Virus record (IMG/VR): IMGVR_UViG_2690316210_000016
Location: 1 to 13,035 of that record
Length of the DNA: 13,035 nucleotides
Reading direction: 5' to 3' (one strand)
Origin: a virus
Taxonomy: Duplodnaviria; Heunggongvirae; Uroviricota; Caudoviricetes
The position numbers were made by a program, and so were the translations under genes. Below are positions 1-13,035 of this stretch, piece after piece. The number at the start of each line of letters is the position of its first letter. Position 1 is the stretch's first letter. The notes below the pieces were generated by a model that saw nothing but the letters and a program-made list of their open reading frames with translations, made no database searches and was not told the DNA's origin.

Positions 1-1230
1 ATGAGCAGAGCACTTAACAAACTGAGCGATACACAGCTGAGGAAAATCAACGGCACACCCGCCCAAAAAACAGCTTTTCTTAATGACGGTGGAAACCTGA
101 GCGTCAGGCATTCAACCAGCGGCCTTTTAACCTGGTATTTCACCTACAGGGCCGGAACGGGAAGGGGAGCACGACCGGAACGGATTAAGCTGGGAAATTA
201 TCCTGATCTGAGTCTGAAAGCTGCCAGGGAAAAAGCGGCACAGTGTCGCGCTTGGCTTGCTGAGGGGAAAAATCCACGTCATGAGATGAATTACACCGTA
301 CAGAAAGCGTTAAAGCCCGTAACGGTTGGCGATGCGCTTACCTACTGGCTTGAGTCTTACGTAAAGGAAAACCGCGTGGATTATGCCGCCCTGAAAAAGC
401 GCCTTAATAATCACGTAATACAGCACATTGGTGCTATGCCGCTGGATAAATGCGAGCTACGGCACTGGCTGGCCTGTTTTGACCAGGTGGCAAAGCGAAC
501 GCCTGTTACTGCCGGATTCTTGCTACAGACGTGCAAACAGGCGCTTAAGTTCTGCCGGAGGCGGCGCTATGCAATCAGCAACGTTCTTGATGATATGAGT
601 GTGGCGGACGTTGGGAAAAAACCGGATATAAGCGAGCGTGTCTTAAGCACCAAAGAACTTGGCGAATTATTGCAGGCACTGGACAAAAAAATATTTTCCC
701 CTTACTACGTCGCACTAATCCGCCTCCTGATTGTTTTCGGATGCCGGACGGTAGAACTGAGGTTATCGGAGATCAGCGAGTGGGATTTTACCGAAATGCT
801 CTGGACCGTGCCGAAAGAACACAGCAAAACGAAGGTGGCAATATTCCGGCCCATACCGGAAGCAATACTGCCGTTCGTCACGCAGCTGGTGGAGCAGAAC
901 AGGCACACGGGCTTATTGCTGGGGGAAGTGAAACAGGAAACAAGCGTGTCGCAGTACGGCAGATTAGCGCACAGGAGGCTAAAACACCCTCACTGGTCAC
1001 TGCATGACATCCGGCGCACCTTTACAACGATGCTGAACGATTTAGGCGTGGATCCTCACGTCGTGGAGCAGCTTACAGGTCATCAGATGCCAGGGATGCA
1101 ACGAGTCTATAACCATTCCCGTTATCTGGATGCGAAACGTGACGCGCTGGATATGTGGACGGAGCGGTTAGGGATACTGGCGGGAACACATGAAAACGTA
1201 ACCACATTGCCAATAGCCAGAGAAATATAA
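1..1230 (+). CDS. int: Tyrosine site-specific integrase (phage integrase family), 409 aa
   Basis: Full ORF from ATG at position 1. C-terminal region has the catalytic-domain pattern (HDIRRTF...GHQMPGMQRVYNHSRY, i.e. His/Arg box and a tyrosine near the end). N-terminal part resembles the arm-binding domain of P4-type integrases. Family assignment is from memory, no search run. Confidence 0.88.
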   Translation: MSRALNKLSDTQLRKINGTPAQKTAFLNDGGNLSVRHSTSGLLTWYFTYRAGTGRGARPERIKLGNYPDLSLKAAREKAAQCRAWLAEGKNPRHEMNYTVQKALKPVTVGDALTYWLESYVKENRVDYAALKKRLNNHVIQHIGAMPLDKCELRHWLACFDQVAKRTPVTAGFLLQTCKQALKFCRRRRYAISNVLDDMSVADVGKKPDISERVLSTKELGELLQALDKKIFSPYYVALIRLLIVFGCRTVELRLSEISEWDFTEMLWTVPKEHSKTKVAIFRPIPEAILPFVTQLVEQNRHTGLLLGEVKQETSVSQYGRLAHRRLKHPHWSLHDIRRTFTTMLNDLGVDPHVVEQLTGHQMPGMQRVYNHSRYLDAKRDALDMWTERLGILAGTHENVTTLPIAREI

Positions 1231-1260
1231 TTTTTTTTGCGATTTTTCAGGATGCGGACA

Positions 1261-1315
1261 ACGTGAAACAACGAGACACAACGACGAACAACAAGGAACA
1301 AAATGGAACAACGGG
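1261..1315. repeat. Five tandem ~10-11 bp GAACAAC-type repeats between int and alpA
   Basis: Direct reading: tgaaacaacga / gacacaacgac / gaacaacaag / gaacaaaatg / gaacaacggg, at roughly one helical turn spacing. A second CA-rich repetitive stretch (gacacaatcc gacacaaccc aacccaataatccaccc) lies at about 1513..1565. Confidence 0.4.
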
Positions 1316-1595
1316 TTAAAAATCAGCCATCGTAATAACCATTTGATTTTTATAGGTGTACTGTTTTTTTATACACTGGCGAATCACTCTTAAAAATATG
1401 TAAAAAAGGCGTAAAAGTAAAATTTTATGCCTTTGCATCATAATGAATTAAAAGAGTTTTTATTCTCATTCCCCCTGCTTCTGTAAAACGACCGCCGCCA
1501 GTGTTTGCCATTCCACAAACACCCTGACACAATCCGACACAACCCAACCCAATAATCCACCCAATGACTCTTTAAGAAACAACAAAGGGGGAATT

Positions 1596-1784
1596 GTGTT
1601 AAGCACAGATCGCTTTATACGTGAAAAAGAATGTCAGCAACTTACAGGCCTGAGCCGCTCATGTCGGTACCGCCTGGAAAAAGCCGGACAATTCCCATCA
1701 CGGCGTAAGCTGGGCGGTCGTTCCGTTGGCTGGTCTTTATCCGAAGTTCTGGCATGGAAGGACAGCTGCGAGGCAGTTCACTAA
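1596..1784 (+). CDS. alpA: AlpA-family small DNA-binding regulator / excisionase-like protein, 62 aa
   Basis: GTG start at 1596 preceded by aaaggggg. Translation (FIREKECQQLTGLSRSCRYRLEKAGQFPSRRKLGGRSVGWSLSEVLAWK) matches the AlpA/CP4-57 regulator HTH pattern. Its position just after int is typical of satellites and integrative elements. Confidence 0.8.
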   Translation: MLSTDRFIREKECQQLTGLSRSCRYRLEKAGQFPSRRKLGGRSVGWSLSEVLAWKDSCEAVH

Positions 1785-1836
1785 TCAGGCTGGCGGCACA
1801 CAGCCGCCACCCATCCACTAATACAGAGATCTAACC

Positions 1837-3261
1837 ATGAATACTGGATATTCTCCCGAACAAGGGCGGGGCTTCGTTCGTCCTGAAAAACAGAATCTGC
1901 AAAATTTTGCCGAAATTATTCCGGTTATTTCCGGCCTTACTGGCGGGAGTGAAACCAATATTGTTAACGCCAGAGCGTTGCAGATGTTTGATGATAAAAA
2001 GGGAGTAAATTTAACTTACACCCCTGACGGCAATCAGAATATGAGCATTATCTCTGAGTCAGGTTTCTACAAACTAATAAAAACAAAAAGCGCCCCGTTG
2101 CCGGAGCGCCTTTGTGAACAATTAACCTACTGCGCAAAAAATGAATCTGAGCAGTGGGATTATATCAACCATGTGGAGAAGCGCCACAATTGCCGAATAA
2201 CGGGCAAAACAAAGGCCACCCGCTACGGTGGCCCCTCGACACAAGCTACACGTTATCCCCAACGCATGAGCATTGCCAACAATGCCACATTTGCGGCTGG
2301 TGGGCAATGCAATCAGTCTGGTTCAGTTCGTTGCCATACCTGCAATGAGCGCTTTTCCCTGTACTCTTTAAGGAATTGCTCAAGGGCAAAAGCACATGGC
2401 GCGAATCTTTCTGATTCATGCTCTATCTTTCTGCGCCGTCTTTTCCGTGCCGGTGATAATGTTTTGGTCAATTCTTTATCGGTCATTGTGTTGTCCTGCA
2501 TAGCAATGCGCCGTAATACCTTACACCACGGCGCTGATGGTGATTACTCTGGTTCTTTGGTCTTGCGGCGCTGGAGTTCTTCACGTGCGACAGTGACGAG
2601 CTGCCCGATCTCCTCGGCGGCTTTGATTCCGAGTTTTTCCACCTGCGCCAGTGCATCGAGCGAAGAAACCAGGGGATTTTCTCCACTTCCTTCTGCCTGG
2701 CGCCGGGCGATCTCACCGCGTACAGCCGTAACTATAAAATTCGCTTTAGTTTCCCCTGGCTGTAGGGATGCCTCAATGCCACTCACTACTTCATGTGGAA
2801 ATCTGGCATTCAGTTGCTGTGACTTATTGTTAACAGAACTCCTGGACATGTTTGCACCTCCCATTAATAACGGGATGCAGTGTAATACAAAAGTGAATAC
2901 CAAAAAAGACTTGAAATGGTATTCACCTAAATGTAATGTGAATACCACAAGTGCTGATACATGCAATTCAGCAATTGAAACGACGAAGCCCCGCACTGTT
3001 GGAGCAGTAACGGGGCTTCTAACCACCAACGATAACGAGAGTATCGAGGTAGCTATGAGAAATCATACCACACACCCGCAAGGGCGGGACTCGCACAACC
3101 TGAATAAATACATCTGGCGTTTTATCGCCCTGAGCACTGCACAACCGCGCGTGATTACCATTGAGGCCACCAGCGAACAGGAAGCACGCCAGCAATCCCC
3201 GGCTGGCTGCGTGATGGTATTCGCTGCCCGTATTCGTCAGGAGGTGTGCCATGTGCAATAA
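1837..3261 (+). CDS. Questionable 474-codon ORF; only the first ~90 codons look protein-like (antirepressor / Bro-N-like segment)
   Basis: Residues ~50-85 (MFDDKKGVNLTYTPDGNQNMSIISESGFYKLIKTKSA) resemble the C-terminal half of a Bro-N/antirepressor domain, but the N-terminal half does not match well. From about nt 2150 onward the translation is Cys/Ser/Arg/Thr-rich and looks non-coding. The ORF also runs antisense through a well-supported minus-strand gene (2544..2849) and through a repeat-rich regulatory region. Probably a gene remnant plus a chance open frame. Confidence 0.25.
   Translation: MNTGYSPEQGRGFVRPEKQNLQNFAEIIPVISGLTGGSETNIVNARALQMFDDKKGVNLTYTPDGNQNMSIISESGFYKLIKTKSAPLPERLCEQLTYCAKNESEQWDYINHVEKRHNCRITGKTKATRYGGPSTQATRYPQRMSIANNATFAAGGQCNQSGSVRCHTCNERFSLYSLRNCSRAKAHGANLSDSCSIFLRRLFRAGDNVLVNSLSVIVLSCIAMRRNTLHHGADGDYSGSLVLRRWSSSRATVTSCPISSAALIPSFSTCASASSEETRGFSPLPSAWRRAISPRTAVTIKFALVSPGCRDASMPLTTSCGNLAFSCCDLLLTELLDMFAPPINNGMQCNTKVNTKKDLKWYSPKCNVNTTSADTCNSAIETTKPRTVGAVTGLLTTNDNESIEVAMRNHTTHPQGRDSHNLNKYIWRFIALSTAQPRVITIEATSEQEARQQSPAGCVMVFAARIRQEVCHVQ
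2544..2849 (-). CDS. Hypothetical small protein (102 aa), possible island regulator
   Basis: Minus-strand ATG (complement of cat at 2847..2849) sits 6 nt after a strong Shine-Dalgarno (GGGAGGTG on the minus strand). The longer upstream extension in the ORF track (to 3029) is hydrophobic junk, so the internal start is preferred. It faces away from the replication operon across operator-like repeats. No family recognised. Confidence 0.45.
   Translation of the reverse strand: MSRSSVNNKSQQLNARFPHEVVSGIEASLQPGETKANFIVTAVRGEIARRQAEGSGENPLVSSLDALAQVEKLGIKAAEEIGQLVTVAREELQRRKTKEPE
2881..3019. promoter_or_regulatory. Operator-like repeats (GTGAATACC direct and inverted) and a 9-bp-stem hairpin in the divergent intergenic region
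   Basis: GTGAATACC at 2893..2901 and 2938..2946, its inverse GGTATTCAC at 2918..2926; TGTAAT at 2881 and 2932. Hairpin GAAGCCCCG (2985..2993) / CGGGGCTTC (3011..3019) with no downstream T-tract. Lies between the minus-strand gene and the plus-strand operon starting at 3251. Confidence 0.35.
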
Positions 3262-3475
3262 CACCCGTCCGGACGCAGCCGCCGAAGCCATCATAACGCT
3301 AATGCATGCGCTGATTGATATTTCTGTTATTGCTGACAGGGCGCATAAACACGCAGTCAGAGAATCAGAATGCATCTTCCATTATTTAGCATTTGTGCAG
3401 CTAAAAGCCGATCAGGCACTGGATAAGGCCGGAAAAATTATCATGGCTGATGTGCAGGAGGTGCACCATGCATAA
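3251..3475 (+). CDS. Hypothetical protein, 74 aa
   Basis: ATG at 3251 preceded by AGGAGG (caggaggtgtgccATG). Its stop overlaps the start of the next ORF (atgcataa), indicating translational coupling. Confidence 0.55.
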   Translation: MCNNTRPDAAAEAIITLMHALIDISVIADRAHKHAVRESECIFHYLAFVQLKADQALDKAGKIIMADVQEVHHA

Positions 3476-3833
3476 CCTGTCAATTTCTGACCTTAACAGC
3501 ATTCAGTTTGACGAGAAATTTACCGGGCAGTTGCTGGTCAATGTGGAGAACGGGCGCATAGTGCGTAATTATCACCTGCCGGATGGTGCAATTGCCGGAA
3601 GCGTTGAAGCATTGCTGGAACTGGCGGAACGTGCGCGACTGATTAAGCCGTCAACGAGCCATCACGATGATGATCTGCATTTTACCGGATGTATGGTGAG
3701 TCACTACGAAAACGGCGTCGAGGTATCCTGCGAACGGCTGCGTGATGATTGCTGTTTCGGCACACTGCCGGAATTTATCGAGTTGCTGACCAGTTGCGGT
3801 TATCAGGTCATTCAGGGGGGTAAACATGCGTGA
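3468..3833 (+). CDS. Hypothetical protein, 121 aa
   Basis: ATG at 3468 preceded by AGGAGG (caggaggtgcaccATG). The ORF-track start at 3450 would place the SD inside the coding sequence, so 3468 is preferred. No recognisable domain. Confidence 0.55.
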   Translation: MHNLSISDLNSIQFDEKFTGQLLVNVENGRIVRNYHLPDGAIAGSVEALLELAERARLIKPSTSHHDDDLHFTGCMVSHYENGVEVSCERLRDDCCFGTLPEFIELLTSCGYQVIQGGKHA

Positions 3834-4059
3834 TGATCGTTTTAATTCCCTGAAACAGGAATTTTCCGGCGTTCCTGATGATGCGGCTGATGCGCTTTCG
3901 TCAATGCCAGAACTTATTAGAGCGGCTTTTTTCTTACTTTCCACGAGAGAATATAAATCAACGGGGCTTGATGTACTGAATATCGCCGCCGATTATGCGG
4001 AATATGTGGCAGAGGCGCGTTACAGAAGAAAATTTCCTGAGGATGTAAGCCATGCGTGA
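3826..4059 (+). CDS. Hypothetical protein, 77 aa
   Basis: ATG at 3826 after a GGGGGG run; start overlaps the previous stop. Acidic small protein, no family recognised. Confidence 0.5.
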   Translation: MRDDRFNSLKQEFSGVPDDAADALSSMPELIRAAFFLLSTREYKSTGLDVLNIAADYAEYVAEARYRRKFPEDVSHA

Positions 4060-4285
4060 TATTTACCACGAAACAATAGACCGCGCATTTCTTGCACTTT
4101 CTCACAGTGAAAACATGCTGGAAATATTGCGCATATGGCTTGAAACACTTGGCGACAATGAACGCGACAAACAAAAATCAAGAATTGCCACGGCATTAAT
4201 AACGCTTCTTGAGCCTGTAATAATGGAACTGCAAGAAATAGATCTATTGCACGACAGATATAAAGAACAGCACACCGGAGAATAA
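4052..4285 (+). CDS. Hypothetical protein, 77 aa
   Basis: ATG at 4052 after GAGGA; overlaps the previous stop. No family recognised. Confidence 0.5.
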   Translation: MRDIYHETIDRAFLALSHSENMLEILRIWLETLGDNERDKQKSRIATALITLLEPVIMELQEIDLLHDRYKEQHTGE

Positions 4286-4290
4286 AAATA

Positions 4291-4590
4291 ATGAAACTTA
4301 AATATTCTGGCTTAACTGCCAGTGGCAACACTCACCCTAAATTTACGCGCGGTGATATTTACCGCGACCAGTACGGCGGCACGGTAATGATTAAGGGCGT
4401 GGAAGAACGGCGTGTAACCTACCGCCGTGAAGGTTACGAATATGATTGCGTGATGCCTGTTTATCAGTTCCGGCGTGATTTTTCTCTGGTGCAGACCGCG
4501 CCGCATAACGTGCCCACCAGCAACGCCAGGGCACGGGCAAACATCCAGAAGCTGAAAACCATGATTAACGGATTCAGGGGTAAAAAATGA
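4291..4590 (+). CDS. Hypothetical protein, 99 aa
   Basis: ATG at 4291 after GGAGA; its stop overlaps the primase start (ATGA). No family recognised. Confidence 0.5.
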   Translation: MKLKYSGLTASGNTHPKFTRGDIYRDQYGGTVMIKGVEERRVTYRREGYEYDCVMPVYQFRRDFSLVQTAPHNVPTSNARARANIQKLKTMINGFRGKK

Positions 4591-6341
4591 AACTGGCACC
4601 GAACGTAAAACAGCAGTCACGCGGCATAAAACACAAAGGAACAGAAGTCATTATTTTTGCGGGTAGTGATGCCTGGGCACACGCGAAACAATGGCAGGAA
4701 CATGATGCGCGTATGGCCGGAGATAATGAGCCTCCTGTGTGGCTTGGGGAGCAGCAGTTATCAGAACTGGATAAGCTGCAAATTGTGCCGGAAGGCAGAA
4801 AATCCGTGCGCATATTCAGGGCCGGATATCTTGCGCCAGTAATGATAAAGGCGATTGGCCAGAAGCTGGCGGCGGCAGGCGTACAGGATGCAAATTTTTA
4901 CCCTGATGGTATGCACGGTCAGAAGGTGGAGAACTGGCGCGAATATCTGGCCCGTGAGCGCCAGAATCTTTCTGATGGTCTGGTCATTGAGCTTCCGGTA
5001 AAGCAAAAGGCGCAACTTTCGCAGATGGCGGACAGTGAGCGCGCGCAGCTGCTTGCCGATCGCTTTGATGGCGTTTGCGTACATCCTGAAAGTGAAATCG
5101 TTCACGTATGGCGCGGCGGGGTATGGTGTCCGGTCAGCACAATGGAACTTAGCCGCGAAATGGTGGCGATCTATTCAGAGCACAGGGCCACTTTCAGCAA
5201 GCGCGTAATCAATAACGCCGTGGAAGCGTTAAAAGTTATTGCCGAACCAATGGGCGAGCCGTCCGGCGATTTGCTGCCGTTCGCCAATGGTGCGCTTGAC
5301 CTGAAAACGGGGGAATTTTCCCCGCACACGCCGGAGAACTGGATCACCACGCACAACGGCATTGAGTACACGCCACCAGCACCCGGGGAGAACATCCGCG
5401 ATAACGCGCCAAACTTTCATAAATGGCTTGAGCACGCAGCCGGAAAAGACCCGCGCAAGATGATGCGTATATGTGCCGCGCTGTACATGATTATGGCGAA
5501 CCGGTACGACTGGCAGATGTTTATTGAGGCCACCGGAGACGGCGGGAGCGGTAAAAGTACATTCACACACATAGCCAGCCTTCTGGCAGGGAAACAAAAC
5601 ACGGTAAGCGCTGAAATGACATCGCTTGATGATGCTGGTGGGCGTGCGCAGGTTGTCGAGAGTCGTCTTATCGTCCTGGCTGACCAGCCGAAATATACAG
5701 GCGAAGGAACGGGCATCAAGAAAATCACGGGCGGCGACCCCGTGGAAATTAACCCGAAATATGAAAAGCGTTTCACGGCGGTAATCAGGGCGGTGGTGCT
5801 GGCGACCAACAACAACCCGATGATATTCACCGAACGGGCCGGAGGTGTGGCACGTCGTCGCGTGATTTTCCGTTTCGACAATATCGTCAGTGAGGCCGAA
5901 AAAGACAGGGAGCTACCGGAAAAGATTGCGGCTGAAATCCCTGTGATTATCCGCCGATTGCTGGCGAACTTTTCCGACCCTGAAAAGGCACGGGCTTTAC
6001 TCATTGAACAGCGTGACGGTGATGAAGCACTGGCGATAAAGCAGCAAACGGATCCGGTTATTGAGTTTTGCCAGTTCCTGAATTTTCTGGAGGAAGCGCG
6101 CGGCCTGATGATGGGTGGCGGTGGCGATTCAGTGAAGTACACGACCAGGAACAGCCTTTACCGCGTCTATCTGGCGTTTATGGCATACGCAGGCAGGAGC
6201 AAACCGCTAAACGTAAATGACTTTGGCAAGGCTATGAAGCCTGCCGCAAAAGTTTACGGACATGAATATATTACGCGGAAAGTTAAGGGGGTAACGCAGA
6301 CTAACGCAATAACAACAGACGAGTGCGACGCGTTTTTATAA
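4587..6341 (+). CDS. Replication initiator: P4-type primase C-terminal / SF3 helicase (D5-like NTPase) protein, 584 aa
   Basis: Walker A P-loop EATGDGGSGKSTF (nt ~5534..5557) followed by a Walker-B-like hydrophobic stretch ending in D (RLIVLADQ). Overall resemblance to the P4-alpha / PICI pri-rep NTPase domain, and an iteron array lies directly downstream. Family from memory, no search run. Confidence 0.82.
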   Translation: MKLAPNVKQQSRGIKHKGTEVIIFAGSDAWAHAKQWQEHDARMAGDNEPPVWLGEQQLSELDKLQIVPEGRKSVRIFRAGYLAPVMIKAIGQKLAAAGVQDANFYPDGMHGQKVENWREYLARERQNLSDGLVIELPVKQKAQLSQMADSERAQLLADRFDGVCVHPESEIVHVWRGGVWCPVSTMELSREMVAIYSEHRATFSKRVINNAVEALKVIAEPMGEPSGDLLPFANGALDLKTGEFSPHTPENWITTHNGIEYTPPAPGENIRDNAPNFHKWLEHAAGKDPRKMMRICAALYMIMANRYDWQMFIEATGDGGSGKSTFTHIASLLAGKQNTVSAEMTSLDDAGGRAQVVESRLIVLADQPKYTGEGTGIKKITGGDPVEINPKYEKRFTAVIRAVVLATNNNPMIFTERAGGVARRRVIFRFDNIVSEAEKDRELPEKIAAEIPVIIRRLLANFSDPEKARALLIEQRDGDEALAIKQQTDPVIEFCQFLNFLEEARGLMMGGGGDSVKYTTRNSLYRVYLAFMAYAGRSKPLNVNDFGKAMKPAAKVYGHEYITRKVKGVTQTNAITTDECDAFL

Positions 6342-6356
6342 TTTTTTGTAATTGCT

Positions 6357-6580
6357 GTCTACCCTGTCTACCTGAGTAAAGAAAAATACATTTAATTCAG
6401 TGCATTAAGTTAGGTAGATAGCCTTTTTTTACTGTCTACCCACTATCTACCCTCTCTACCTGATTTTACCTGAATCAGACAGGGAGGTAGACACGGGGTA
6501 GATAGTGGATAAAAGCACTCTACCCCGCTGAAATCCGCGCCATTACTGGCATGAGGGCCACTAAGGTAGATAAGGTAGAC
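6357..6580. repeat. Iteron array, putative replication origin
   Basis: About 11 copies of the heptamer GTCTACC / GGTAGA(C/T) within 225 bp. Mostly GTCTACC-type in the left cluster (6357, 6366, 6434, 6445, 6454) and GGTAGAC/T-type in the right cluster (6486, 6497, 6565, 6574), with one GGTAGAT at 6413 and one CTCTACC at 6518. An AT-rich stretch (6374..6412) lies inside the left cluster. Confidence 0.7.
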
Positions 6581-6629
6581 AAGGGGAGGCACAACTCAAA
6601 ACTTTTTAAACGAGGGGGTAAAAATAAAT

Positions 6630-6908
6630 ATGCACACTTCAGGGAAATTTAATAAATCACTCAAAAAACGCAGAGACAGAACAGAACCGAAATATCGCGC
6701 GTTAGACATGACAGAGCACGCTTTAAAGGTGGCAATCAGAACGATAGACCGACACGTAGGGGAAGGATACGCGAAGGAACATCCCGACCTGATAAGCGCA
6801 TTCATGACCACAGCAGCGGCAAACTTTGCCACGCTGACAGAACGGGAGATTGCCGAAGCGGAACAGGTAACAACCATCAACGTTAAAACCGGAGAGGTGG
6901 AATCATGA
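6630..6908 (+). CDS. Hypothetical protein, 92 aa
   Basis: ATG at 6630 preceded by GAGGGGG; its stop overlaps the start of the SSB-like gene (ATGA). No family recognised. Confidence 0.5.
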   Translation: MHTSGKFNKSLKKRRDRTEPKYRALDMTEHALKVAIRTIDRHVGEGYAKEHPDLISAFMTTAAANFATLTEREIAEAEQVTTINVKTGEVES

Positions 6909-7315
6909 CAGCACAGATAGCAGCTTACGGGCGGCTGGTGGACGACCCGCAGGTAAAACAGACCAGCAAGGGCACACCAATGACGCTGGCACGTATGGCG
7001 GTATCGTTGCCATGTAGTCAGGCGCAGGATGGGCAGGCTACGTTATGGCTATCGGTGATGGCATTTGGTAAGCAGGCCGACTTCCTGGCTAAACATCAAA
7101 AAGGCGACGTTGCCAGCGTATCCGGCACGATGCAGGTCAGCCAGTGGACCGGACAGAACGGGGAAACGCGGCAGGGTTATCAGGTTATTGCAGACAGCGT
7201 AATCAGTGCCCGTGCGGCACGTCCTGGCGGGAACAGACGCAAAACCACAGGCACACAGGGTAATCAGCCACCAGCGGGAGGCGATGACCCTTACGGTGAT
7301 GATATTCCGTTCTGA
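6905..7315 (+). CDS. ssb: Single-stranded DNA-binding protein homolog (short, 136 aa)
   Basis: OB-fold-like N-terminal region, a Gly/Pro/Gln-rich linker, and a C-terminal acidic tip GDDIPF that corresponds to the conserved DDDIPF tail of bacterial SSB. Confidence 0.78.
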   Translation: MTAQIAAYGRLVDDPQVKQTSKGTPMTLARMAVSLPCSQAQDGQATLWLSVMAFGKQADFLAKHQKGDVASVSGTMQVSQWTGQNGETRQGYQVIADSVISARAARPGGNRRKTTGTQGNQPPAGGDDPYGDDIPF

Positions 7316-7325
7316 GGGGGTGAGG

Positions 7326-7574
7326 ATGGTACATGACCGCATAGCGGAGGAACTCGAGGCAAAAGGCTTTTACCGGAGGGCGGCGGCACGATGGGGTGAA
7401 GTCATGCAACTGGTGGAGACAGACAAGGAACGGCATCAGGTTACGATGCGACGGCTGGAATGTTCCAGGAAGGCACAGAGGCCACCGGAGCCGCCAACGG
7501 AGAACTATGCAGACCTGAGAAATGCAGTAAATCGCACTTACGCAGACATGGGGCTGAGCAAATTAGCAGAGTAG
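7326..7574 (+). CDS. PerC/Pch-family-like small transcriptional activator, 82 aa
   Basis: ATG at 7326 after GGGGG, in frame with the ORF-track entry 7206..7574, whose upstream part overlaps ssb and is probably not translated. The motif IAEELEAKGFYRRAAARWGEVM resembles the conserved N-terminal motif of PerC/Pch regulators as I recall it. Confidence 0.5.
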   Translation: MVHDRIAEELEAKGFYRRAAARWGEVMQLVETDKERHQVTMRRLECSRKAQRPPEPPTENYADLRNAVNRTYADMGLSKLAE

Positions 7575-7597
7575 GAATACCAGAACCACACCACACA

Positions 7598-7619
7598 GCC
7601 GGAGCAATCCGGCTTTTTT
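7598..7619 (+). terminator. Rho-independent terminator
   Basis: GCCGGA-GCAA-TCCGGC hairpin followed by TTTTTT. Confidence 0.6.
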
Positions 7620-7631
7620 GCGCCCAAAAAA

Positions 7632-7668
7632 AGCCCGATAAGGTCAGAGGTGGCTTATCGGGCTTTTG
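7632..7668. terminator. Second hairpin terminator, probably bidirectional
   Basis: Perfect 11-bp stem AGCCCGATAAG / CTTATCGGGCT with an 11-nt loop, flanked by an A-run upstream and TTTT downstream. Confidence 0.6.
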
Positions 7669-7744
7669 CATATGAGGTTTTTTGGTGCACTGACACACAT
7701 GATCGGGATAATCATTTCATAATTTGCAACGCAACTCAATATCA

Positions 7745-7797
7745 TTGCACAAAATGCAATCATGATTATAATCATAACTGGATGAACATCCAGTTAT
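7745..7797 (+). promoter_or_regulatory. Sigma70-type promoter of the capsid module overlapped by two perfect palindromic operators
   Basis: TTGCAC (7745..7750), 16-bp spacer, TATAAT (7767..7772). Perfect 14-bp palindrome ATGATTATAATCAT (7762..7775) overlaps the -10. Perfect 24-bp palindrome ATAACTGGATG-AA-CATCCAGTTAT (7774..7797) covers the predicted transcription start. Confidence 0.55.
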
Positions 7798-7828
7798 GAT
7801 TTTTTAAGTCAAAGAGGAATTTCTTACT

Positions 7829-8035
7829 ATGGCTGAAGAGAAAAAAGGCGGTGTTTCGGTGTACATAAGCCCCGACATCGTGAAGGCGCTCAAGGAACGC
7901 CACCAGCAGAACGTAAAAGCAGGCATTGCGGCAGGACTTGATCCGCTGGCGATGGTTGAGCCGTCAACAGGCTGGCAGGTACGCGCCTATTTACGCGCGG
8001 CGCTGGGTATGAATCAGGTTCACGGGGGTGAATAA
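7829..8035 (+). CDS. Hypothetical protein, 68 aa, first gene of the capsid module
   Basis: ATG at 7829 after AAGAGGA; stop overlaps the capsid gene start (TAATG). No family recognised. Confidence 0.55.
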   Translation: MAEEKKGGVSVYISPDIVKALKERHQQNVKAGIAAGLDPLAMVEPSTGWQVRAYLRAALGMNQVHGGE

Positions 8036-9090
8036 TGACAGTAAAAGCAATGGCACTTAACACTAACCAGCTTTTTGCGTACCTGAATCGCGGGGATATT
8101 GCGGAATTTAAATTCAGTCCGCTGTTTACCACGCTGTTTTTCCCGAACGTGGCGACATTCAGCACGCAAAACATCATGCTGGATACCCTGGACATTGAAG
8201 AAGTCACCATGTCGGCGTTTTGTTCGCCTATGGTGGGTAGCCAGGTTCAGCGCGATAAAGGGTACGAAACCAGCACGATTAAACCTGGCTACATGAAGCC
8301 AAAGCACGAAATCGATCCAACGAAAACCATCATGCGCATGGCTGGAGAAGATCCGGCACAGCTTAACGACCCTACCTATCGCCGTATGCGCCTGATTACT
8401 GGCAATATGCGCCGCCAGATAAACGCCATAAAAGCGCGCGTGGAATGGCTGGCGGTAAATGCGGTAACGACCGGAAAAAACATCATTGAAGGCGAAGGCA
8501 TAGAGCGCTATGAAATCGACTGGAAGATACCGGAAAAAAACATCATAGAGCAGGCCGACGGGAAAAAATGGTCAGAGCAGGACAAAGAAACCCACGATCC
8601 AATCTATGATATCGAACTATACGCCGATCAGGCTGGTTGCCCCGCAAACGTCATGATTATGGGCGCTGAGGTATGGCGAACGTTACGCAGCTTTAAAAAA
8701 TTCCGTGAGCTGTACGATCTTTCCCGTGGTTCAGAGTCCGCCGCAGAGCTGGCCTGTAAAAACCTGGGCGAAGTGGTGAGCTTTAAAGGCTATCTGGGCG
8801 ATATTGCCCTTATCGTCTATTCCGGCAAATACACTGACAGCGACGGCACAGAAAAATATTTCCTTGAGCCTGATTTGCTTGTCCTGGGCAACACCAACAA
8901 TAAAGGGCTGGTGGCCTATGGTGCGATTATGGATCAGGACGCAGTAAGAACGGGCGCAACGCAAAACATGTTTTACCCGAAAAACTGGATTGAGGACGGC
9001 GATCCGGCGATTGAGTACGTGCAGACGCACAGCGCACCGCAGCCGGTTCCGGCAGATATTCGCAAATTTGTTACCGTCAAAATTGGTTAA
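8035..9090 (+). CDS. Major capsid protein, lambda gpE-like (HK97 fold family), 351 aa
   Basis: Multiple blocks match lambda gpE as recalled: KPGYMKPKHEIDP vs TPGYVKPKHEVNP; DPTYRRMRLITGNMR vs DPAYRRRRIIMQNMR; VSFKGYLGDIALIVYSGKY vs VSYKGMYGDVAIVVYSGQY; LLVLGNTNNKGLVAYGAIMDQDA vs TMVLGNTQARGLRTYGCIQDADA; YPKNWIEDGDPAIEY vs YPKNWVTTGDPAREF. Length is similar to gpE (341 aa). Confidence 0.9.
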   Translation: MTVKAMALNTNQLFAYLNRGDIAEFKFSPLFTTLFFPNVATFSTQNIMLDTLDIEEVTMSAFCSPMVGSQVQRDKGYETSTIKPGYMKPKHEIDPTKTIMRMAGEDPAQLNDPTYRRMRLITGNMRRQINAIKARVEWLAVNAVTTGKNIIEGEGIERYEIDWKIPEKNIIEQADGKKWSEQDKETHDPIYDIELYADQAGCPANVMIMGAEVWRTLRSFKKFRELYDLSRGSESAAELACKNLGEVVSFKGYLGDIALIVYSGKYTDSDGTEKYFLEPDLLVLGNTNNKGLVAYGAIMDQDAVRTGATQNMFYPKNWIEDGDPAIEYVQTHSAPQPVPADIRKFVTVKIG

Positions 9091-9101
9091 CGGGGGATTC
9101 T

Positions 9102-9437
9102 ATGGACACTCCATACATTGAGTTATTTGCAGGCAGTCAGCAGGTCGCCACGACGCTGGTACATTTTGCCGCTGATGCTGGCGTTATTCAGGAATTTACC
9201 CCGCTGATGCTGGCGGACAATGGCGAGTTTAAGCCGTGGGATGGTAAGGAATCTGGCAAGGCTGTTTATCTGACCTCGTACCCTGTGGACACGTCAAAGC
9301 AGAAATCAGCACAGTGTTACAAGACGGGGATATTCAATATTGCCGCCGTTAACTGGCCTGAGAGCGTCGACACCGATGCGAAAAAATGCGCCGCCTTTGC
9401 GGGTTCCGGCGTATCCGTTCAGCCGCTGGCCCGATAA
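9102..9437 (+). CDS. Head decoration protein, lambda gpD-like, 111 aa
   Basis: Matches lambda gpD (110 aa) as recalled: TPLMLADNGEFKPWDG vs TPLMLDTSSRKLVAWDG; CYKTGIFNIAAVNWPESVDTDAKKCAAFAGSGVSV vs [35 protein letters not shown]. Preceded by GGGGGAT. Confidence 0.85.
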   Translation: MDTPYIELFAGSQQVATTLVHFAADAGVIQEFTPLMLADNGEFKPWDGKESGKAVYLTSYPVDTSKQKSAQCYKTGIFNIAAVNWPESVDTDAKKCAAFAGSGVSVQPLAR

Positions 9438-9449
9438 GCAGGGGGAACG

Positions 9450-9863
9450 ATGGCAACGAATGAAAGCATCATGACGCTACCGCTGGCGAGTAAATTTAAA
9501 GCCGAAGCGCGGGCAATGGCTGACAGAGGTTTATCAACCTATGAGGCCGTATATCAACTAAACAAACTGGAAGAGCAGGACAAGCCGCGCGCTGATGCGA
9601 TTATGGCGCTTCATGAGCATAAAGACTATCAGCCGCTGTTGCGTGCAATGGCAAACGTGCCTTGTATCGATGTTGGTACGGCTAAAAGCATCCTTAGCAT
9701 GACCATAGAGCAGGAACGTCCGAAGGTTGCGCCGGAACTTACCGCAGCCTTTGAAAACTTTATGGACATGCACAGCCCGCAAGCCGTATCAGCTGGCATG
9801 GCATACGATGGCAGAAACCAGGGCGATGACGGCGACATCGATCGCATACTGAAAACCATCTGA
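9450..9863 (+). CDS. Hypothetical protein, 137 aa, last gene of the capsid module
   Basis: ATG at 9450 after AGCAGGGGGAAC. No similarity to lambda FI/FII that I can recognise. Confidence 0.55.
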   Translation: MATNESIMTLPLASKFKAEARAMADRGLSTYEAVYQLNKLEEQDKPRADAIMALHEHKDYQPLLRAMANVPCIDVGTAKSILSMTIEQERPKVAPELTAAFENFMDMHSPQAVSAGMAYDGRNQGDDGDIDRILKTI

Positions 9864-9869
9864 GACAAG

Positions 9870-9891
9870 GCCGGAGAAATCCGGCTTTTTT
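9870..9891 (+). terminator. Rho-independent terminator
   Basis: GCCGGA-GAAA-TCCGGC hairpin followed by TTTTTT; nearly identical to the terminator at 7598..7619. Confidence 0.6.
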
Positions 9892-9892
9892 A

Positions 9893-9957
9893 CGGGTCCT
9901 TCCTGGAATTATGGCCCGTTACGGGGCGGCGACCTCGCGGGTTTTCGCTATTTATGA
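9893..9957 (+). other. cos site copy A: lambda-type cosQ-cosN junction with only the first ~22 bp of cosB
   Basis: Contains GTTACG-GGGCGGCGACCT-CGCGGGTTTTCGCTATTTATGA, matching the lambda end junction (12-nt cohesive end GGGCGGCGACCT at 9924..9935, recalled from the lambda genome). The preceding CGGGTCCTTCCTGG resembles the lambda right end ACGGGTCCTTTCCGG. No R-type repeats follow before the Nu1-like gene. Confidence 0.8.
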
Positions 9958-10024
9958 CGTTTTCCCGTGAAGGTGACACCACCACCACTTGATTAATATT
10001 TAACCATGCAGTTAAGGTAACATT

Positions 10025-10459
10025 ATGATTGATAAAGCTTGTTTTGTAAGTCAGCAGGAAATAGCTGAACATTTCAAGGTTAACAGAACCACTATTCGCG
10101 CATGGACCAAACAGGGGATGCCGTATCTTAATGCGGATCGCGGAAAGTCTGGCGGTTATCACATCGGGCATACATTGCTTTGGTCTTCAGGTAAAAGCCG
10201 TCTTGAGGCCATCAGATATCACGTAGAAACCAGTGCGCTGGAAAAAATTATGTTTGCCAGGCTGCTTTCATCTGAGCGTGACGAGTACTCCAGTGAAGAA
10301 ACAGAACATCGATTTGATGAAGGTTTGCAGATTTACGGCTATTCACCGGAAGATGTGAGCAAGGCACGAAATAAAATGGCTGGCTTTCTGGCTGGGTGGC
10401 GTCATGCCGTAAGCGTTCGCCGTGCCAGCATGGAGCAATCAGCCGATACAGAACAGTAA
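10025..10459 (+). CDS. Small terminase subunit homolog (lambda gpNu1-like N-terminal winged-HTH domain), 144 aa
   Basis: VSQQEIAEHFKVNRTTIRAWTKQGMPYLNADRGKSGG aligns with lambda Nu1 VNKKQLADIFGASIRTIQNWQEQGMPVLRGGGKGN. Shorter than Nu1 (181 aa), and the C-terminal half is unrelated. No large terminase subunit gene is present in the window. Confidence 0.72.
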   Translation: MIDKACFVSQQEIAEHFKVNRTTIRAWTKQGMPYLNADRGKSGGYHIGHTLLWSSGKSRLEAIRYHVETSALEKIMFARLLSSERDEYSSEETEHRFDEGLQIYGYSPEDVSKARNKMAGFLAGWRHAVSVRRASMEQSADTEQ

Positions 10460-10527
10460 AGCCGATAACTTGTTAATCACTCGCAGCAATGCATGTGATT
10501 TGTGCACACTTTCGGTTAACTGGTTCG

Positions 10528-10705
10528 ATGTCCGGTTTTAGTGTCTGTTTTTTGCGCATGTCCGGTTCATGGAAAGCATGTTTTTATATTTTTCATATGG
10601 TTAACTTGCAGAGAAACCGGACATGGATCCCGAAAAATTTTCATAAATAGTGAAAACGCGCGAGGTCGCCGCCCCGTAACGGGCCATAATTCCAGGAAGG
10701 ACCCG
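10528..10705 (-). other. cos site copy B (inverted): cosQ-cosN plus a complete cosB-like region with three R-like repeats and an AT-rich tract
   Basis: Read on the minus strand: cosQ-like at 10675..10705, cosN (AGGTCGCCGCCC on plus) at 10663..10674, then TATTTATGAAAATTTTCGGG, matching lambda TATTTATGAAAATTTTCCGG. R-like decamers ATGTCCGGTT at 10528..10537 and 10558..10567 and the inverse AACCGGACAT at 10615..10624, with an AT-rich tract at 10570..10612. This mirrors the lambda cosN-R3-I1-R2-R1 layout but with a different repeat sequence. Confidence 0.75.
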
Positions 10706-10738
10706 ACGACACCAGACTATCAGAACGATGGGGGCACA

Positions 10739-11020
10739 ATGACAGAAGCCGAAATACTGCGATTAATCCGCCGCGTTGCCGGAATCAGCCAGCAGGCCGA
10801 CGAACAGACCACGCAGCCGGACAGCGTGACCGCCGAAAATTATGTTCGTGTGGTTGCTGAGATGATTCGCCGTAATGGTATCCAGCTTAATGATGTGGAT
10901 ATGCGCAACATACGGATCCGCGTTCTTGAAATGCTGGCCTACAATCGCCGCGTGGCACTGTATCGGGAAACGGAGAAAATTACGTACCACTGGAAGAAGC
11001 CGGAGCGGTTGCGGCGGTAA
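10739..11020 (+). CDS. Hypothetical protein, 94 aa, distal to cos
   Basis: Start chosen at ATG 10739 (GGGGG upstream). The ORF-track start at 10541 would translate through cos copy B. No family recognised. Confidence 0.45.
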   Translation: MTEAEILRLIRRVAGISQQADEQTTQPDSVTAENYVRVVAEMIRRNGIQLNDVDMRNIRIRVLEMLAYNRRVALYRETEKITYHWKKPERLRR

Positions 11021-11070
11021 CTGGTTGATATTTTCGAAATTCGCCAGCGGCGAACATCGGGGAAACCAGC

Positions 11071-11187
11071 CTAACCCGTTGATATTTTCGGGAACCTCAA
11101 ATTGAGGAGGTCGGAAACATAACCCGTCATATTCTGGATGCTGATAATTACCACGCAGCCCATTAAGGCCTAACCCGTTGATTCTTC
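11071..11187. repeat. Three direct repeats of TAACCCGT(T/C)(G/A)AT at ~48-bp spacing
   Basis: ctaacccgttgatattttcg (11071), cataacccgtcatattctgg (11119), cctaacccgttgattcttcc (11168); also ttgatattttcg at 11024. Confidence 0.4.
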
Positions 11188-11193
11188 CACAAT

Positions 11194-11356
11194 CCCCCAT
11201 TGGGGGAGGCTGGGCGGCCTGCTGTGGGCTTTTCCACCATTGGTGGAAAGGCGCACATCTGGATCATCATTACGGTGATCAAGGGTATGTAAAACCCACC
11301 AGCCTGATTGACATTTAACCGGAAAAAAGCCAGGTAGCCCCATTATGGGGATCCCC
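11194..11356. repeat. Cluster of GC-rich palindromes with a CCATTGG-type core
   Basis: CCCCCA-T-TGGGGG (11194..11206), TTTCCACCA-T-TGGTGGAAA (11231..11249), CCCCAT-T-ATGGGG (11338..11350) overlapping GGGGATCCCC (11347..11356). Confidence 0.4.
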
Positions 11357-11574
11357 ATATCGACATTAACGCCCCTCATGAATTGGCGCGCTTCCCCCTG
11401 GAAAGATGACCCGCCTGTATATTTCTTGTGTCTATTTGTTCCACGTTGTTTCATACAGTGCAACGATCGGTGTAGTTAATGGTGTAGTCAATTTGCGATT
11501 TTTAGCACTTTTTGCAGTGCAAATCATTTAATTAAATCAATGACTTGCCTTGATGTAGTGATAAAAGGACATAT

Positions 11575-13035
11575 TTATTCATCTTTCGGCGCAGAATGCT
11601 GGCGACCAAAAATCACCTCCATCCGCGCACCGCCCAGCATGCTCTCTCCGGCGACGATTTTACCCTCATATTGCTCGGTGATTTCGCGGGCTACCGCCAG
11701 CCCTACACCTTGCCCAGGGCGTAAAGTATCAACCCGTTGACCACGGTCGAAAATGACCTCTCGCTTGCTTAATGGAATACCGGGGCCATCATCCTCGACC
11801 ACAATATAGAGATGCTCGTCGGTTTGCCTTGCAGAAATTTCGACAAACTCGAGGCAATATTTACAGGCATTATCCAGCACGTTGCCCATCACCTCGACAA
11901 AATCGTTCTGCTCACCGACAAAGCTGATCTCTGGCGAAATATCGAGAGAGATATTGACCCCTTTGCGTTGATACACTTTGTTCAGCGCTGAGGTGAGATT
12001 GTCCAGCAGTGGGGCGACCGGATGCAGCTCGCGGCTGAGCAATGTCCCGCCGCGCATACTGGCACGATGCAGGTAGTAGCCAATTTGCTGTGAAATGCGG
12101 CTGATTTGCTCCAGCATTACCGGCTCAGCATCACTGACGCTCATCTTTTCACTACGCAGAGAACGCAGCGTACTTTGCAGCACCGCCAGTGGCGTTTTCA
12201 GACTATGGGTCAGGTCGGTGAGCGTCGTACGGTATTTGTCGTAACGTTCGCGTTCACTTTTTAACAATCGGTTCAGGTTTCGTACCAGACTGGTCAGTTC
12301 TCGCGTTGTGGCTGGATTGAGCAATTCGCGGTTATGTTCTTCCAGTTCGCGGACTTCTTTTGCCAGGGCTTCGATGGGGCGTAAACTCCACCAGGCGGCG
12401 ACCCACAGCAGCGGGATCACTAACAGCAGATTGGCTGAGAGCACATAGATAAACCAGCTCCAGACCATATAGGAACTTTTTAGCTCCACCGGAATGGTAT
12501 CCACCACCACAATGGTTAATTTTGGCATCCGCGATGTTGCCGGGTAGACGTTTACTGCCACCGAGTGGGTCATCTCCGCGTCGTCATCATCTTCCCGCAC
12601 TTCCTGCAACTGTTGCTGTATCGAATGATCTCCACTCAGCAAGAGGCTGGTATCGTTAACATCCGCTTCAATTTCATGAAAACCATTCGATTTCAGCCAG
12701 TCAGGCTGGATCATCTTCATCAGCCAGGGCACGTCACGTTGCGCCCATAAAAGCTGCCCGTTCTCATCATAAATTAGCGTCATGGTGGGGCTTTGCTTGT
12801 CGATATTTTCGGGTAACTCGACATGCAACTTATTGTTTTCCCACTTCGCAAGGGTATAGAACAGATTGCTCTCGCCACGTAACAGCCGAAACGTAGTTTT
12901 ATCGAAACTGACGCTATAACCGATCAGCGCGACCATTCCGTAGGCAAGCGAAAGCACCAGTACTACCGCAGCCGTTGCCAACAGAAAACGTACCCGCAGC
13001 GAGAGCGGGAAAAAAAGACGCAGTAATTTTTTCAT
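11575..13035 (-). CDS. phoQ: Sensor histidine kinase PhoQ, 486 aa, complete
   Basis: Translation matches E. coli PhoQ as recalled, including the periplasmic acidic patch EDDDDAE, the H-box HSLKTPL and the C-terminal ATP-binding domain. The start codon is the last three bases of the window. Confidence 0.93.

Follow-up and report, generated by a model that had tools for sequence, protein, structure and literature searches.

A shell, decoration and putative scaffold gene set in an EcCICFT073-type phage-inducible chromosomal island

Among the phage-inducible chromosomal islands (PICIs) of Escherichia coli, EcCICFT073 serves as the Gram-negative model and has been termed a classical PICI; the hallmark of capsid-forming PICIs (cf-PICIs) is a complete set of head and packaging genes (bioRxiv 10.1101/2022.09.08.507074). 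For the CFT073 allele of EcCICFT073, helper-dependent induction, packaging and high-frequency transfer have been demonstrated, and the same studies described its two cos sites and their function as well as the redirection of the helper small terminase (TerS) to island cos1 by the Rpp protein (PMC6092414, PMC6739421). Fillol-Salom et al. (2018, ISME J; PMC6092414) named and deleted the island genes c1499 (putative capsid, 351 amino acids, aa) and c1500 (head decoration), and their supplement lists c1501 as a 137-aa protein. A capsid gene was reported in 21 of 29 reference Gram-negative PICIs (PMC10111431). Here we analysed a stretch of viral DNA of 13,035 nucleotides (IMG/VR record IMGVR_UViG_2690316210_000016, positions 1 to 13,035; 'the window' denotes this whole stretch) with a focus on the four genes at positions 7829-9863. 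We are nearly certain that the window holds an EcCICFT073-type classical PICI allele, about 98% identical to the described island, and that 7829-9863 is its head-morphogenesis operon.

That islands of the EcCICFT073 type carry capsid and decoration genes is well established in the field, and our finding is in this respect a rediscovery. An earlier reading of the window, made from the letters and ORF translations alone (the sequence-only reading), had implied that these genes were new; this does not hold, given their publication in 2018 (PMC6092414) and the fact that capsid carriage is the norm in Gram-negative PICIs (PMC10111431). The new elements are modest: a scaffold assignment for c1501, evidence on lineages and selection, and a caveat on the published strains. 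Our preferred reading, to which we assign a probability of roughly 45%, is that the operon, known here from its genes, is a kit of shell, cement and scaffold that is dispensable under some conditions and would be completed by the portal, protease and terminase of a helper phage. By homology, the operon content is a matched set of a gpE-family shell protein, a gpD-family cement protein, a predicted protease-less scaffold of the Nu3 type and a 68-aa protein that is probably coupled to the shell gene. The operon lies between two near-identical terminators, behind a conserved promoter-like block and immediately 5' of cos1 and rppA. Its features are:

7598-7619, + strand: rho-independent terminator after perC, stem GCCGGA/TCCGGC with a T-run behind it; bounds the module on its 5' side
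7716-7772, + strand: promoter- or operator-like block with TTCATA-18-TATCAT (7716-7745), TTGCAC-16-TATAAT (7745-7772) and the palindrome ATTGCA-N5-TGCAAT
7770-7801, + strand: perfect 15-bp inverted repeat with a T-run, arms 100% complementary and 2 nt apart, immediately 5' of the ribosome-binding site of c1498
7829-8035, + strand: c1498, 68 aa, phrog_3255 (unknown function), E 8e-37
8035-9090, + strand: c1499, major capsid protein of the lambda gpE family, 351 aa, PF03864, E 2e-52
9102-9437, + strand: c1500, head decoration protein of the lambda gpD family, 111 aa, PF02924 (E 2.5e-17) and phrog_49
9450-9863, + strand: c1501, stand-alone homologue of Nu3-type internal scaffolds, 137 aa, two Nu3-type repeats and the tail motif FENFMDMHSPQAV, protease domain absent
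9870-9891, + strand: rho-independent terminator closing the module directly after the c1501 stop, from sequence reading and pattern search

The sequence-only reading had described four open reading frames (ORFs), two of them homologous to the lambda capsid and decoration proteins and standing in the reverse of the lambda order. All of this was borne out. The ORFs are co-directional and lie at 7829-8035, 8035-9090, 9102-9437 and 9450-9863, and the two homologies were confirmed by the Pfam families PF03864 and PF02924 and by identity to lambda E and D. c1499 scored 178.7 bits against PF03864 (cut-off 22.9) and is a member of the gpE family. It matched the structural-genomics crystal structure of the CFT073 protein (PDB 3BQW, E 1.7e-238), from which it differs by about three residues, and the lambda E structure 7VI9 (E 7e-84). 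Identity amounted to 44% with lambda E (E 4e-95), 45% with the E protein of the lambdoid prophage in icd of CFT073, which is the published natural helper, and 47% with E of phage PhiR12. c1500, with 63.5 bits against PF02924 (cut-off 29.1), belongs to the gpD family and is 36% identical to lambda D and 43% identical to helper D.

D precedes E in lambda, in PhiR12, in the CFT073 icd prophage and in more than 20 further phages of several genera that appear in both tblastn lists, among them 434, N15, mEp237, HK629, Gifsy-1, Stx1 phages, Aeromonas PhAER-1 and BUCT552, Vibrio HY01, Xylella Salvo and Bacata, and Klebsiella N133. The E-then-D order of the island is thus reversed relative to every phage checked. 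Taken over three genes, the order is E, D, scaffold in the island and scaffold, D, E in lambda. Since the island genes all share one orientation, the reversed order is not a simple inversion.

Lambda Nu3 is an internal scaffold whose C-terminus is shared with the protease gpC. The sequence-only reading had seen no scaffold in the module, while proposing both small proteins as scaffold-like candidates. The first statement fails, as c1501 corresponds by homology to the scaffolding part at the C-terminus of lambdoid C/Nu3; the second held for the 137-aa c1501, whereas the 68-aa c1498 received no assignment. Against phrog_53, the head maturation protease family of the PHROG database, c1501 aligned at positions 495-567 of 583, the extreme C-terminus (E 5e-9). 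A tblastn search matched only the 3' (Nu3) end of the C/Nu3 gene in PhiR12-type lambdoid phages of E. coli (E 5e-5), and by BLASTP residues 49-131 were 37-39% identical to residues 416-493 of the 501-aa C/Nu3 of both PhiR12 and the CFT073 icd helper. Profile-profile comparison with hhalign placed residues 4-121 on the last two repeats and the tail of the Nu3 family (96.8% probability, E 2.5e-10, 117 columns). c1501 carries the C-terminal repeats of Nu3-type proteins, IMxxxEA.GRE..A..LA..PGMTV..AR.IL, followed by an acidic/hydrophobic tail. The motif F..[FY]M..HSP..V in this tail is common to helper-type C/Nu3 and two satellite scaffold variants, which are 28% identical to each other; it stands at an equal distance from the C-terminus in helper-type C/Nu3 and is absent from lambda. 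By homology, c1501 is therefore a protease-less lambdoid scaffold of the Nu3 type, with a putative scaffold function.

Direct BLASTP of c1501 against lambda Nu3 gave no alignment, and the relation runs through the C/Nu3 of PhiR12-type phages and the helper, the PHROG profile and the profile-profile comparison. An exhaustive HMMER search of 1.8 billion proteins returned a very narrow family of 8 clusters with a sole distant match, a 195-aa stand-alone Nu3-type protein (P0072, E 4e-5); protease-scaffold fusions fell below significance given the size of the database. The AlphaFold2 model of c1501 was all-helical with a mean predicted local distance difference test score (pLDDT) of 46.6, too low for a fold search; such a model is compatible with a flexible scaffold and is not diagnostic. 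In the nested arrangement Nu3 lies in frame within the S49 protease gene C, whereas c1501 is a stand-alone gene in an island that has no protease. An identity with lambda FI or another head protein was considered and rejected for want of similarity. NCBI names relatives of c1501 'phage head-tail connector protein', a name that we did not adopt, as no curated NCBIfam model stands behind it; NCBIfam contains no model that matches any of the four module proteins. Within the searchable literature library, we found no publication linking a PICI gene to Nu3. The assignment of c1501 to the scaffold family is new here, and both c1501 and c1498 are unassigned in the published work on EcCICFT073.

Portal, protease and the large terminase subunit (TerL), which the sequence-only reading had noted as lacking from the module, were searched for over the complete island and were found in none of its ORFs; the remaining ORFs are accounted for. 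Neither family searches nor the annotations of CFT073 and strain 181.1 revealed hidden head genes elsewhere in the island. Any island-built capsid must use helper parts, because the island is devoid of portal, protease and TerL.

Like cf-PICIs such as EcCIEDL933, the island is an E. coli satellite with an int-alpA-rep backbone and its own capsid protein. However, cf-PICIs take only tails from the helper, and the sequence-only reading had rightly stated that they carry a fuller head set, namely capsid, protease, portal, connectors, HNH, TerS and TerL (bioRxiv 10.1101/2022.09.08.507074). The island lacks all of these except the capsid protein: no portal, head maturation protease, head-tail connector, TerL or HNH was present in the island ORFs, and its only packaging-specificity gene encodes Rpp, a protein with a DNA-binding domain like that of TerS. 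Conversely, the head genes listed in the cf-PICI preprint include no lambda-type gpE, no gpD-type decoration protein and no Nu3-type scaffold, whereas the island has all three. The island is also distinct from P4-like satellites: sid, psu and delta families were absent from every ORF, and the primase alone is P4/D5-like.

With lambda, the island shares the shell, cement and scaffold C-terminal families (repeat and tail) and the same cosN adjoining the genes. It differs from lambda in having no protease, portal, W, FI, FII or terminase A, in a scaffold gene that is not nested in a protease gene, and in a scaffold tail motif that is that of PhiR12-type phages rather than lambda. CpmB of SaPI1 is a satellite internal scaffold-like protein with a C-terminal motif in common with the helper scaffold, and it is a competitor of the 80alpha scaffold. 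CpmB has no sequence relation to c1501 and acts by remodelling capsids of helper protein, whereas c1501 is a true homologue of the helper scaffold and is paired with an island capsid protein. SaPIbov5, which encodes Ccm, is like the island a cos-packaged, helper-dependent satellite with a diverged homologue of the helper capsid protein. Ccm, however, is a lone penton-forming redirector of size and shape with a strong deletion phenotype, while the island capsid gene is accompanied by decoration and scaffold genes of its own, and deletion of c1499 gave no phenotype in published tests (PMC6092414).

Of 5,426 complete E. coli genomes, 598 contain all four genes of the module in intact form, at 93-99% identity. 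At least four E. coli lineages have the pair in the order capsid then decoration, at roxA/phoQ, at cspD/clpS, at tRNA-Pro/yejM and embedded in a prophage E gene, and the ORFs were intact in 8 of the 8 E. coli loci examined. In these lineages the pair always lies 3' of the single-stranded DNA-binding protein (SSB) gene and 5' of the packaging-specificity gene, and the module is retained through swaps of primase against RepA helicase and of Rpp against TerS. Satellite capsid proteins are 54-65% identical to each other and 41-48% identical to phage capsid proteins, with 47% as the highest phage identity to c1499; the corresponding values for decoration proteins are 50-58% and 29-40%. Each of the two satellite proteins forms a clade apart from the lambdoid phage proteins. 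Ratios of nonsynonymous to synonymous substitution rates (dN/dS) were 0.07-0.13 for the capsid gene, where dS was unsaturated, and 0.08-0.2 for the decoration gene. The capsid gene is under purifying selection. A decayed prophage remnant, which the sequence-only reading had named as a refuting outcome, is improbable, with ORFs intact and dN/dS well below 1. The sequence comparisons suggest that the genes were acquired once, long ago, with a rearrangement, and have been kept since, and they argue for a co-adapted set rather than a recent capture.

Outside E. coli, a locus of Pluralibacter gergoviae (L012 9207-10260) and locus L013, in assemblies of independent samples, have a split satellite capsid gene, with ORFs of 179 aa and 170 aa, next to intact 68-aa, decoration and Rpp genes. 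A Salmonella enterica contig (L014 157-2541) carries a related satellite whose 68-aa, capsid and decoration genes directly follow a truncated GpA terminase ORF; this satellite looks like a PICI embedded in its helper, with a prophage terminase gene as the insertion site.

In the preferred reading, c1499, c1500 and c1501 would act jointly during helper-induced late growth. The island scaffold would drive polymerisation of the island capsid protein on a helper portal, a helper gpC-type protease would remove the scaffold, helper terminase redirected by Rpp would fill the shell from cos1, and the island decoration protein would stabilise the expanded shell. The outcome would be capsids in which all or part of the protein comes from the island. 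Binding of gpD is restricted to shells that have expanded and are filled with DNA. The presence of a co-evolving decoration protein therefore argues, in our view, that the island capsid protein ends in real filled capsids and is not a mere inhibitor. Moreover, the scaffold tail motif and the N-terminal arm of the capsid protein are nearer to the natural-helper (PhiR12) type than to lambda, which fits the use of a portal and protease from PhiR12-type helpers. A more specific proposal, that with such helpers the kit builds island-specific and possibly small capsids on a stolen portal, so that these islands would be an intermediate between classical PICIs and cf-PICIs, is tentative and somewhat doubtful.

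Several observations weigh against the kit reading. c1499 is only 45% identical to helper E, and its fit with helper portal and protease is putative. Deletion of c1499 or c1500 left transfer mediated by the native CFT073 prophage unchanged, an island with c1499::cat transferred well with lambda and phi80 (Table 1 of that study), the authors report no phenotype for c1499, and no band of PICI-monomer size was seen with the native helper and an intact module (all PMC6092414). The split capsid gene of Pluralibacter shows that loss is tolerated in at least one lineage. We infer that the function of the operon is conditional and that it is dispensable for transfer by the three laboratory-tested helpers.

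The strains behind these experiments call for a caveat. Packaged DNA with lambda as helper was all phage-sized (PMC6092414), and in the strain table of that study (Table S7) the lambda and phi80 lysogens are listed only with EcCICFT073-c1499::cat. The lambda result is thus uninformative on small capsids, because cat had replaced the island capsid gene. In the native-helper strain, the primer arm places a tetA cassette exactly between the c1501 stop and the terminator/cos1, which enlarged the island. That this c1501::tetA marker disrupts the scaffold gene was considered and rejected, since the primer arm ends at the c1501 stop and the gene is intact. The published tests of capsid size therefore never paired an intact module with an island of wild-type size.

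This caveat matters most for an alternative modelled on Ccm, in which the island capsid protein occupies selected positions, such as the pentons, of a helper shell and, together with the island scaffold, directs the formation of small capsids for one 11.5-kb genome. In SaPIbov5, the pentamers of the small T=4 procapsids are reported to consist of Ccm (PMC8569155), and small capsids are also made by PmCI172, a PICI of Gram-negative hosts that encodes a capsid homologue (PMC6092414). The DNA sizes seen with lambda came from the c1499::cat island and are no test of this alternative, and the island used with the native helper was enlarged by tetA between c1501 and cos1. However, the intact module gave no monomer-size band with the native helper, transfer was unchanged on deletion of c1499 or c1500, and removal of c1499 at constant island size led to higher rather than lower transfer (PMC6092414). 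In addition, the carriage of matched decoration and scaffold genes suggests a whole island-type lattice and not occasional subunits. We consider such a redirection of the helper shell unlikely.

The knockouts without phenotype would also be expected of a functionless passenger, a leftover from the head genes of a prophage that is merely carried along by the island. The split capsid gene of the Pluralibacter lineage and the Gram-negative PICIs that do without capsid genes (8 of the 29 reference PICIs, PMC10111431, and also EcCIMP1) fit this explanation as well. It is at odds with dN/dS values well below 1 for both capsid and decoration genes, with ORFs that have stayed intact in 598 genomes and across at least four lineages, despite protein sequence differences of up to 45% between these, with a satellite-specific clade and a fixed, non-phage gene order, with the conserved promoter-like block, and with a capsid protein that folds well enough to be crystallised (3BQW). 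A passenger is, on balance, improbable.

Quite improbable, too, is a back-up supply, in which island E and D replace helper capsid genes that are interrupted or repressed, for instance by a satellite in the helper E gene. One relative with the same capsid-then-decoration pair (L006) does interrupt the E gene of a prophage, helper-embedded PICIs target E more often than any other gene and a back-up role has been discussed (PMC10111431), and the Salmonella relative appears to lie inside a terminase A gene. The EcCICFT073-type island, however, sits at roxA/phoQ, outside any helper; excision restores the helper gene regardless; 42-46% identity to the helper capsid protein makes direct substitution doubtful; and the knockouts are tolerated.

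Published lambda experiments bear on interference with the helper. With the genes after ori expressed one at a time from pBAD18, c1503 (rppA) was the sole inhibitor of lambda, and deletion of rppA fully restored lambda plaquing (PMC6739421, 2019 Mol Cell), whereas deletion of c1499 or c1500 did not relieve the interference (PMC6092414). For lambda this refutes the dominant-negative capsid subunit proposed by the sequence-only reading, and although the detailed published tests covered lambda only and the tail motif common to c1501 and helper-type C/Nu3 could let c1501 compete for the same binding partner (compare SaPI1 CpmB), we regard it as highly improbable, the more so as it is hard to see what a decoration protein would contribute to a poison, that island capsid, decoration or scaffold protein titrates or co-assembles with helper head proteins and so poisons their assembly.

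The module had been credited by the sequence-only reading with its own promoter and terminator. The terminator at 9870-9891 is confirmed, while the promoter is a conserved promoter-like block and putative. The pattern GCCGGAGNAATCCGGCTTTTTT occurred exactly twice in the window (7598-7619 and 9870-9891), with 0 occurrences expected. Both terminators are part of a 27-nt direct repeat, 89% identical, with copies about 2.27 kb apart, and could mark the boundaries of a cassette-like module. Within the block at 7716-7772, one promoter candidate was a match of a consensus scan and the second was read directly from the sequence. The block is kept in the island of the cspD/clpS lineage despite an overall identity of about 66% and diverged flanks, and it probably serves as promoter or operator. 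The palindrome ATTGCA-N5-TGCAAT overlaps a -35-like element, is kept across lineages and is a candidate regulatory site. The inverted repeat at 7770-7801 could be an operator or an attenuator; it is kept among close relatives only and does not occur in the STEC316 lineage.

The stop codon of c1498 overlaps the ATG of the capsid gene, which suggests translational coupling. c1498 had no match in Pfam or NCBIfam and no phage match by tblastn. Its AlphaFold2 model (pLDDT 74) shows a beta-hairpin and two helices, and a Foldseek search of the PDB with this model gave nothing significant, with no match below E = 2. An analogy to gpW, which has the same length of 68 aa, was dropped as there is no similarity to W. 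A by-eye reading as a ribbon-helix-helix regulator was likewise left aside: the model is compatible with a beta-alpha-alpha fold, Foldseek gave no support, and we left c1498 unassigned. Homologues of c1498 stand upstream of the capsid gene in satellites of E. coli, Salmonella and Pluralibacter and are missing from other lineages; the small genes of the yejM and helper-embedded lineages (a helix-turn-helix protein and proteins of 69-71 aa) have no similarity to c1498 or c1501. dN/dS of c1498 was 0.24-0.41. Between islands at the phoQ site (compared with L009/L010 9130-9336), c1498 is about 68% identical, while their capsid proteins are 95-97% identical. Such variability would fit a breakpoint of recombination, or alleles under diversification, where the operon begins.

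By megablast, the window is 98% identical to the CFT073 island and its relatives across 92-100% of its length, and the insertion site, the roxA/phoQ interval, is identical to that of the CFT073 island. About 8% of the window does not align to CFT073; this part is the accessory region from alpA to the primase. In a genome that covers 100% of the window, the att direct repeats are 11,491 bp apart, which gives an island of about 11.5 kb, and the attR core is found at window positions 11458-11488 with phoQ on the opposite strand beyond it. From the att spacing and the position of attR inside the window it follows that all island genes lie within the window. The other features of the island are:

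1-1230: integrase, PF00589
1596-1784: alpA, PF05930 (E 3e-18), followed by small accessory ORFs
4587-6341: D5/P4-type primase, from family search
6905-7315: SSB
end at 7574: perC
9893-9970, + strand: cos site directly 3' of the module, with cosN GGGCGGCGACCT at 9924-9935, identical to lambda cosN
10025-10459, + strand: rppA (c1503), 144 aa, the published length of RppA; PDB 6HLK (RppC), E 5e-31
10739-11020: c1504, 93 aa, phrog_1561, function unassigned; final gene of the island

The order of EcCICFT073, that is int, alpA, primase, SSB, perC, c1498, c1499, c1500, c1501, cos1, rppA, cos2 and c1504, is also that of the window. The island shows the characteristics of classical PICIs: a terminal integrase and att repeats, a size within 10-20 kb, alpA with pri/rep and mostly unidirectional genes, and a helper-type cos with Rpp, while lysis and tail families are absent from its ORFs. 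Given an identity of 98%, the helper-dependent induction, packaging and transfer known for the CFT073 allele probably carry over to the allele in the window.

The cos region at 9893-9970 is 78-90% identical to cos regions of lambdoid phages and presumably corresponds to the published cos1. Exact cosN sequences occur at 9924 and 10663 on opposite strands, and the two cos copies (9893-9970 and 10628-10705) are arranged as an inverted repeat of 78 nt (90% complementary) with rppA between them. The 144-aa product of rppA is a helix-turn-helix protein with Nu1-like similarity in its N-terminal part; rppA is context of the module and lies outside the capsid operon. c1504 is 73-87% identical in three compared satellite loci (O157 phoQ site, cspD/clpS and yejM) and is always the last gene before attR. 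A 474-aa ORF at 1837-3261 (+ strand) had no family match and overlaps opposite-strand YlcI/YnfO-family and small hypothetical genes of relatives, which annotate only its 3' part, as an Icd-like protein; this ORF is probably spurious. In the CFT073 chromosome (1377930-1443900), EcCICFT073 is separated by only about 8 kb from its published natural helper, the lambdoid prophage in icd, which carries IS3 and IS21 insertions, several pseudogenes and one frameshifted tail gene.

Our results sharpen the question why a capsid gene whose deletion has no laboratory phenotype is retained by most Gram-negative PICIs. They also recast the module as a set of shell, cement and putative scaffold genes and not a lone capsid gene. 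If this kit does build satellite-specific heads with natural helpers, it would link the satellites that take over entire virions to those that take no more than the tails, and it may be relevant to engineered PICI-based delivery particles.

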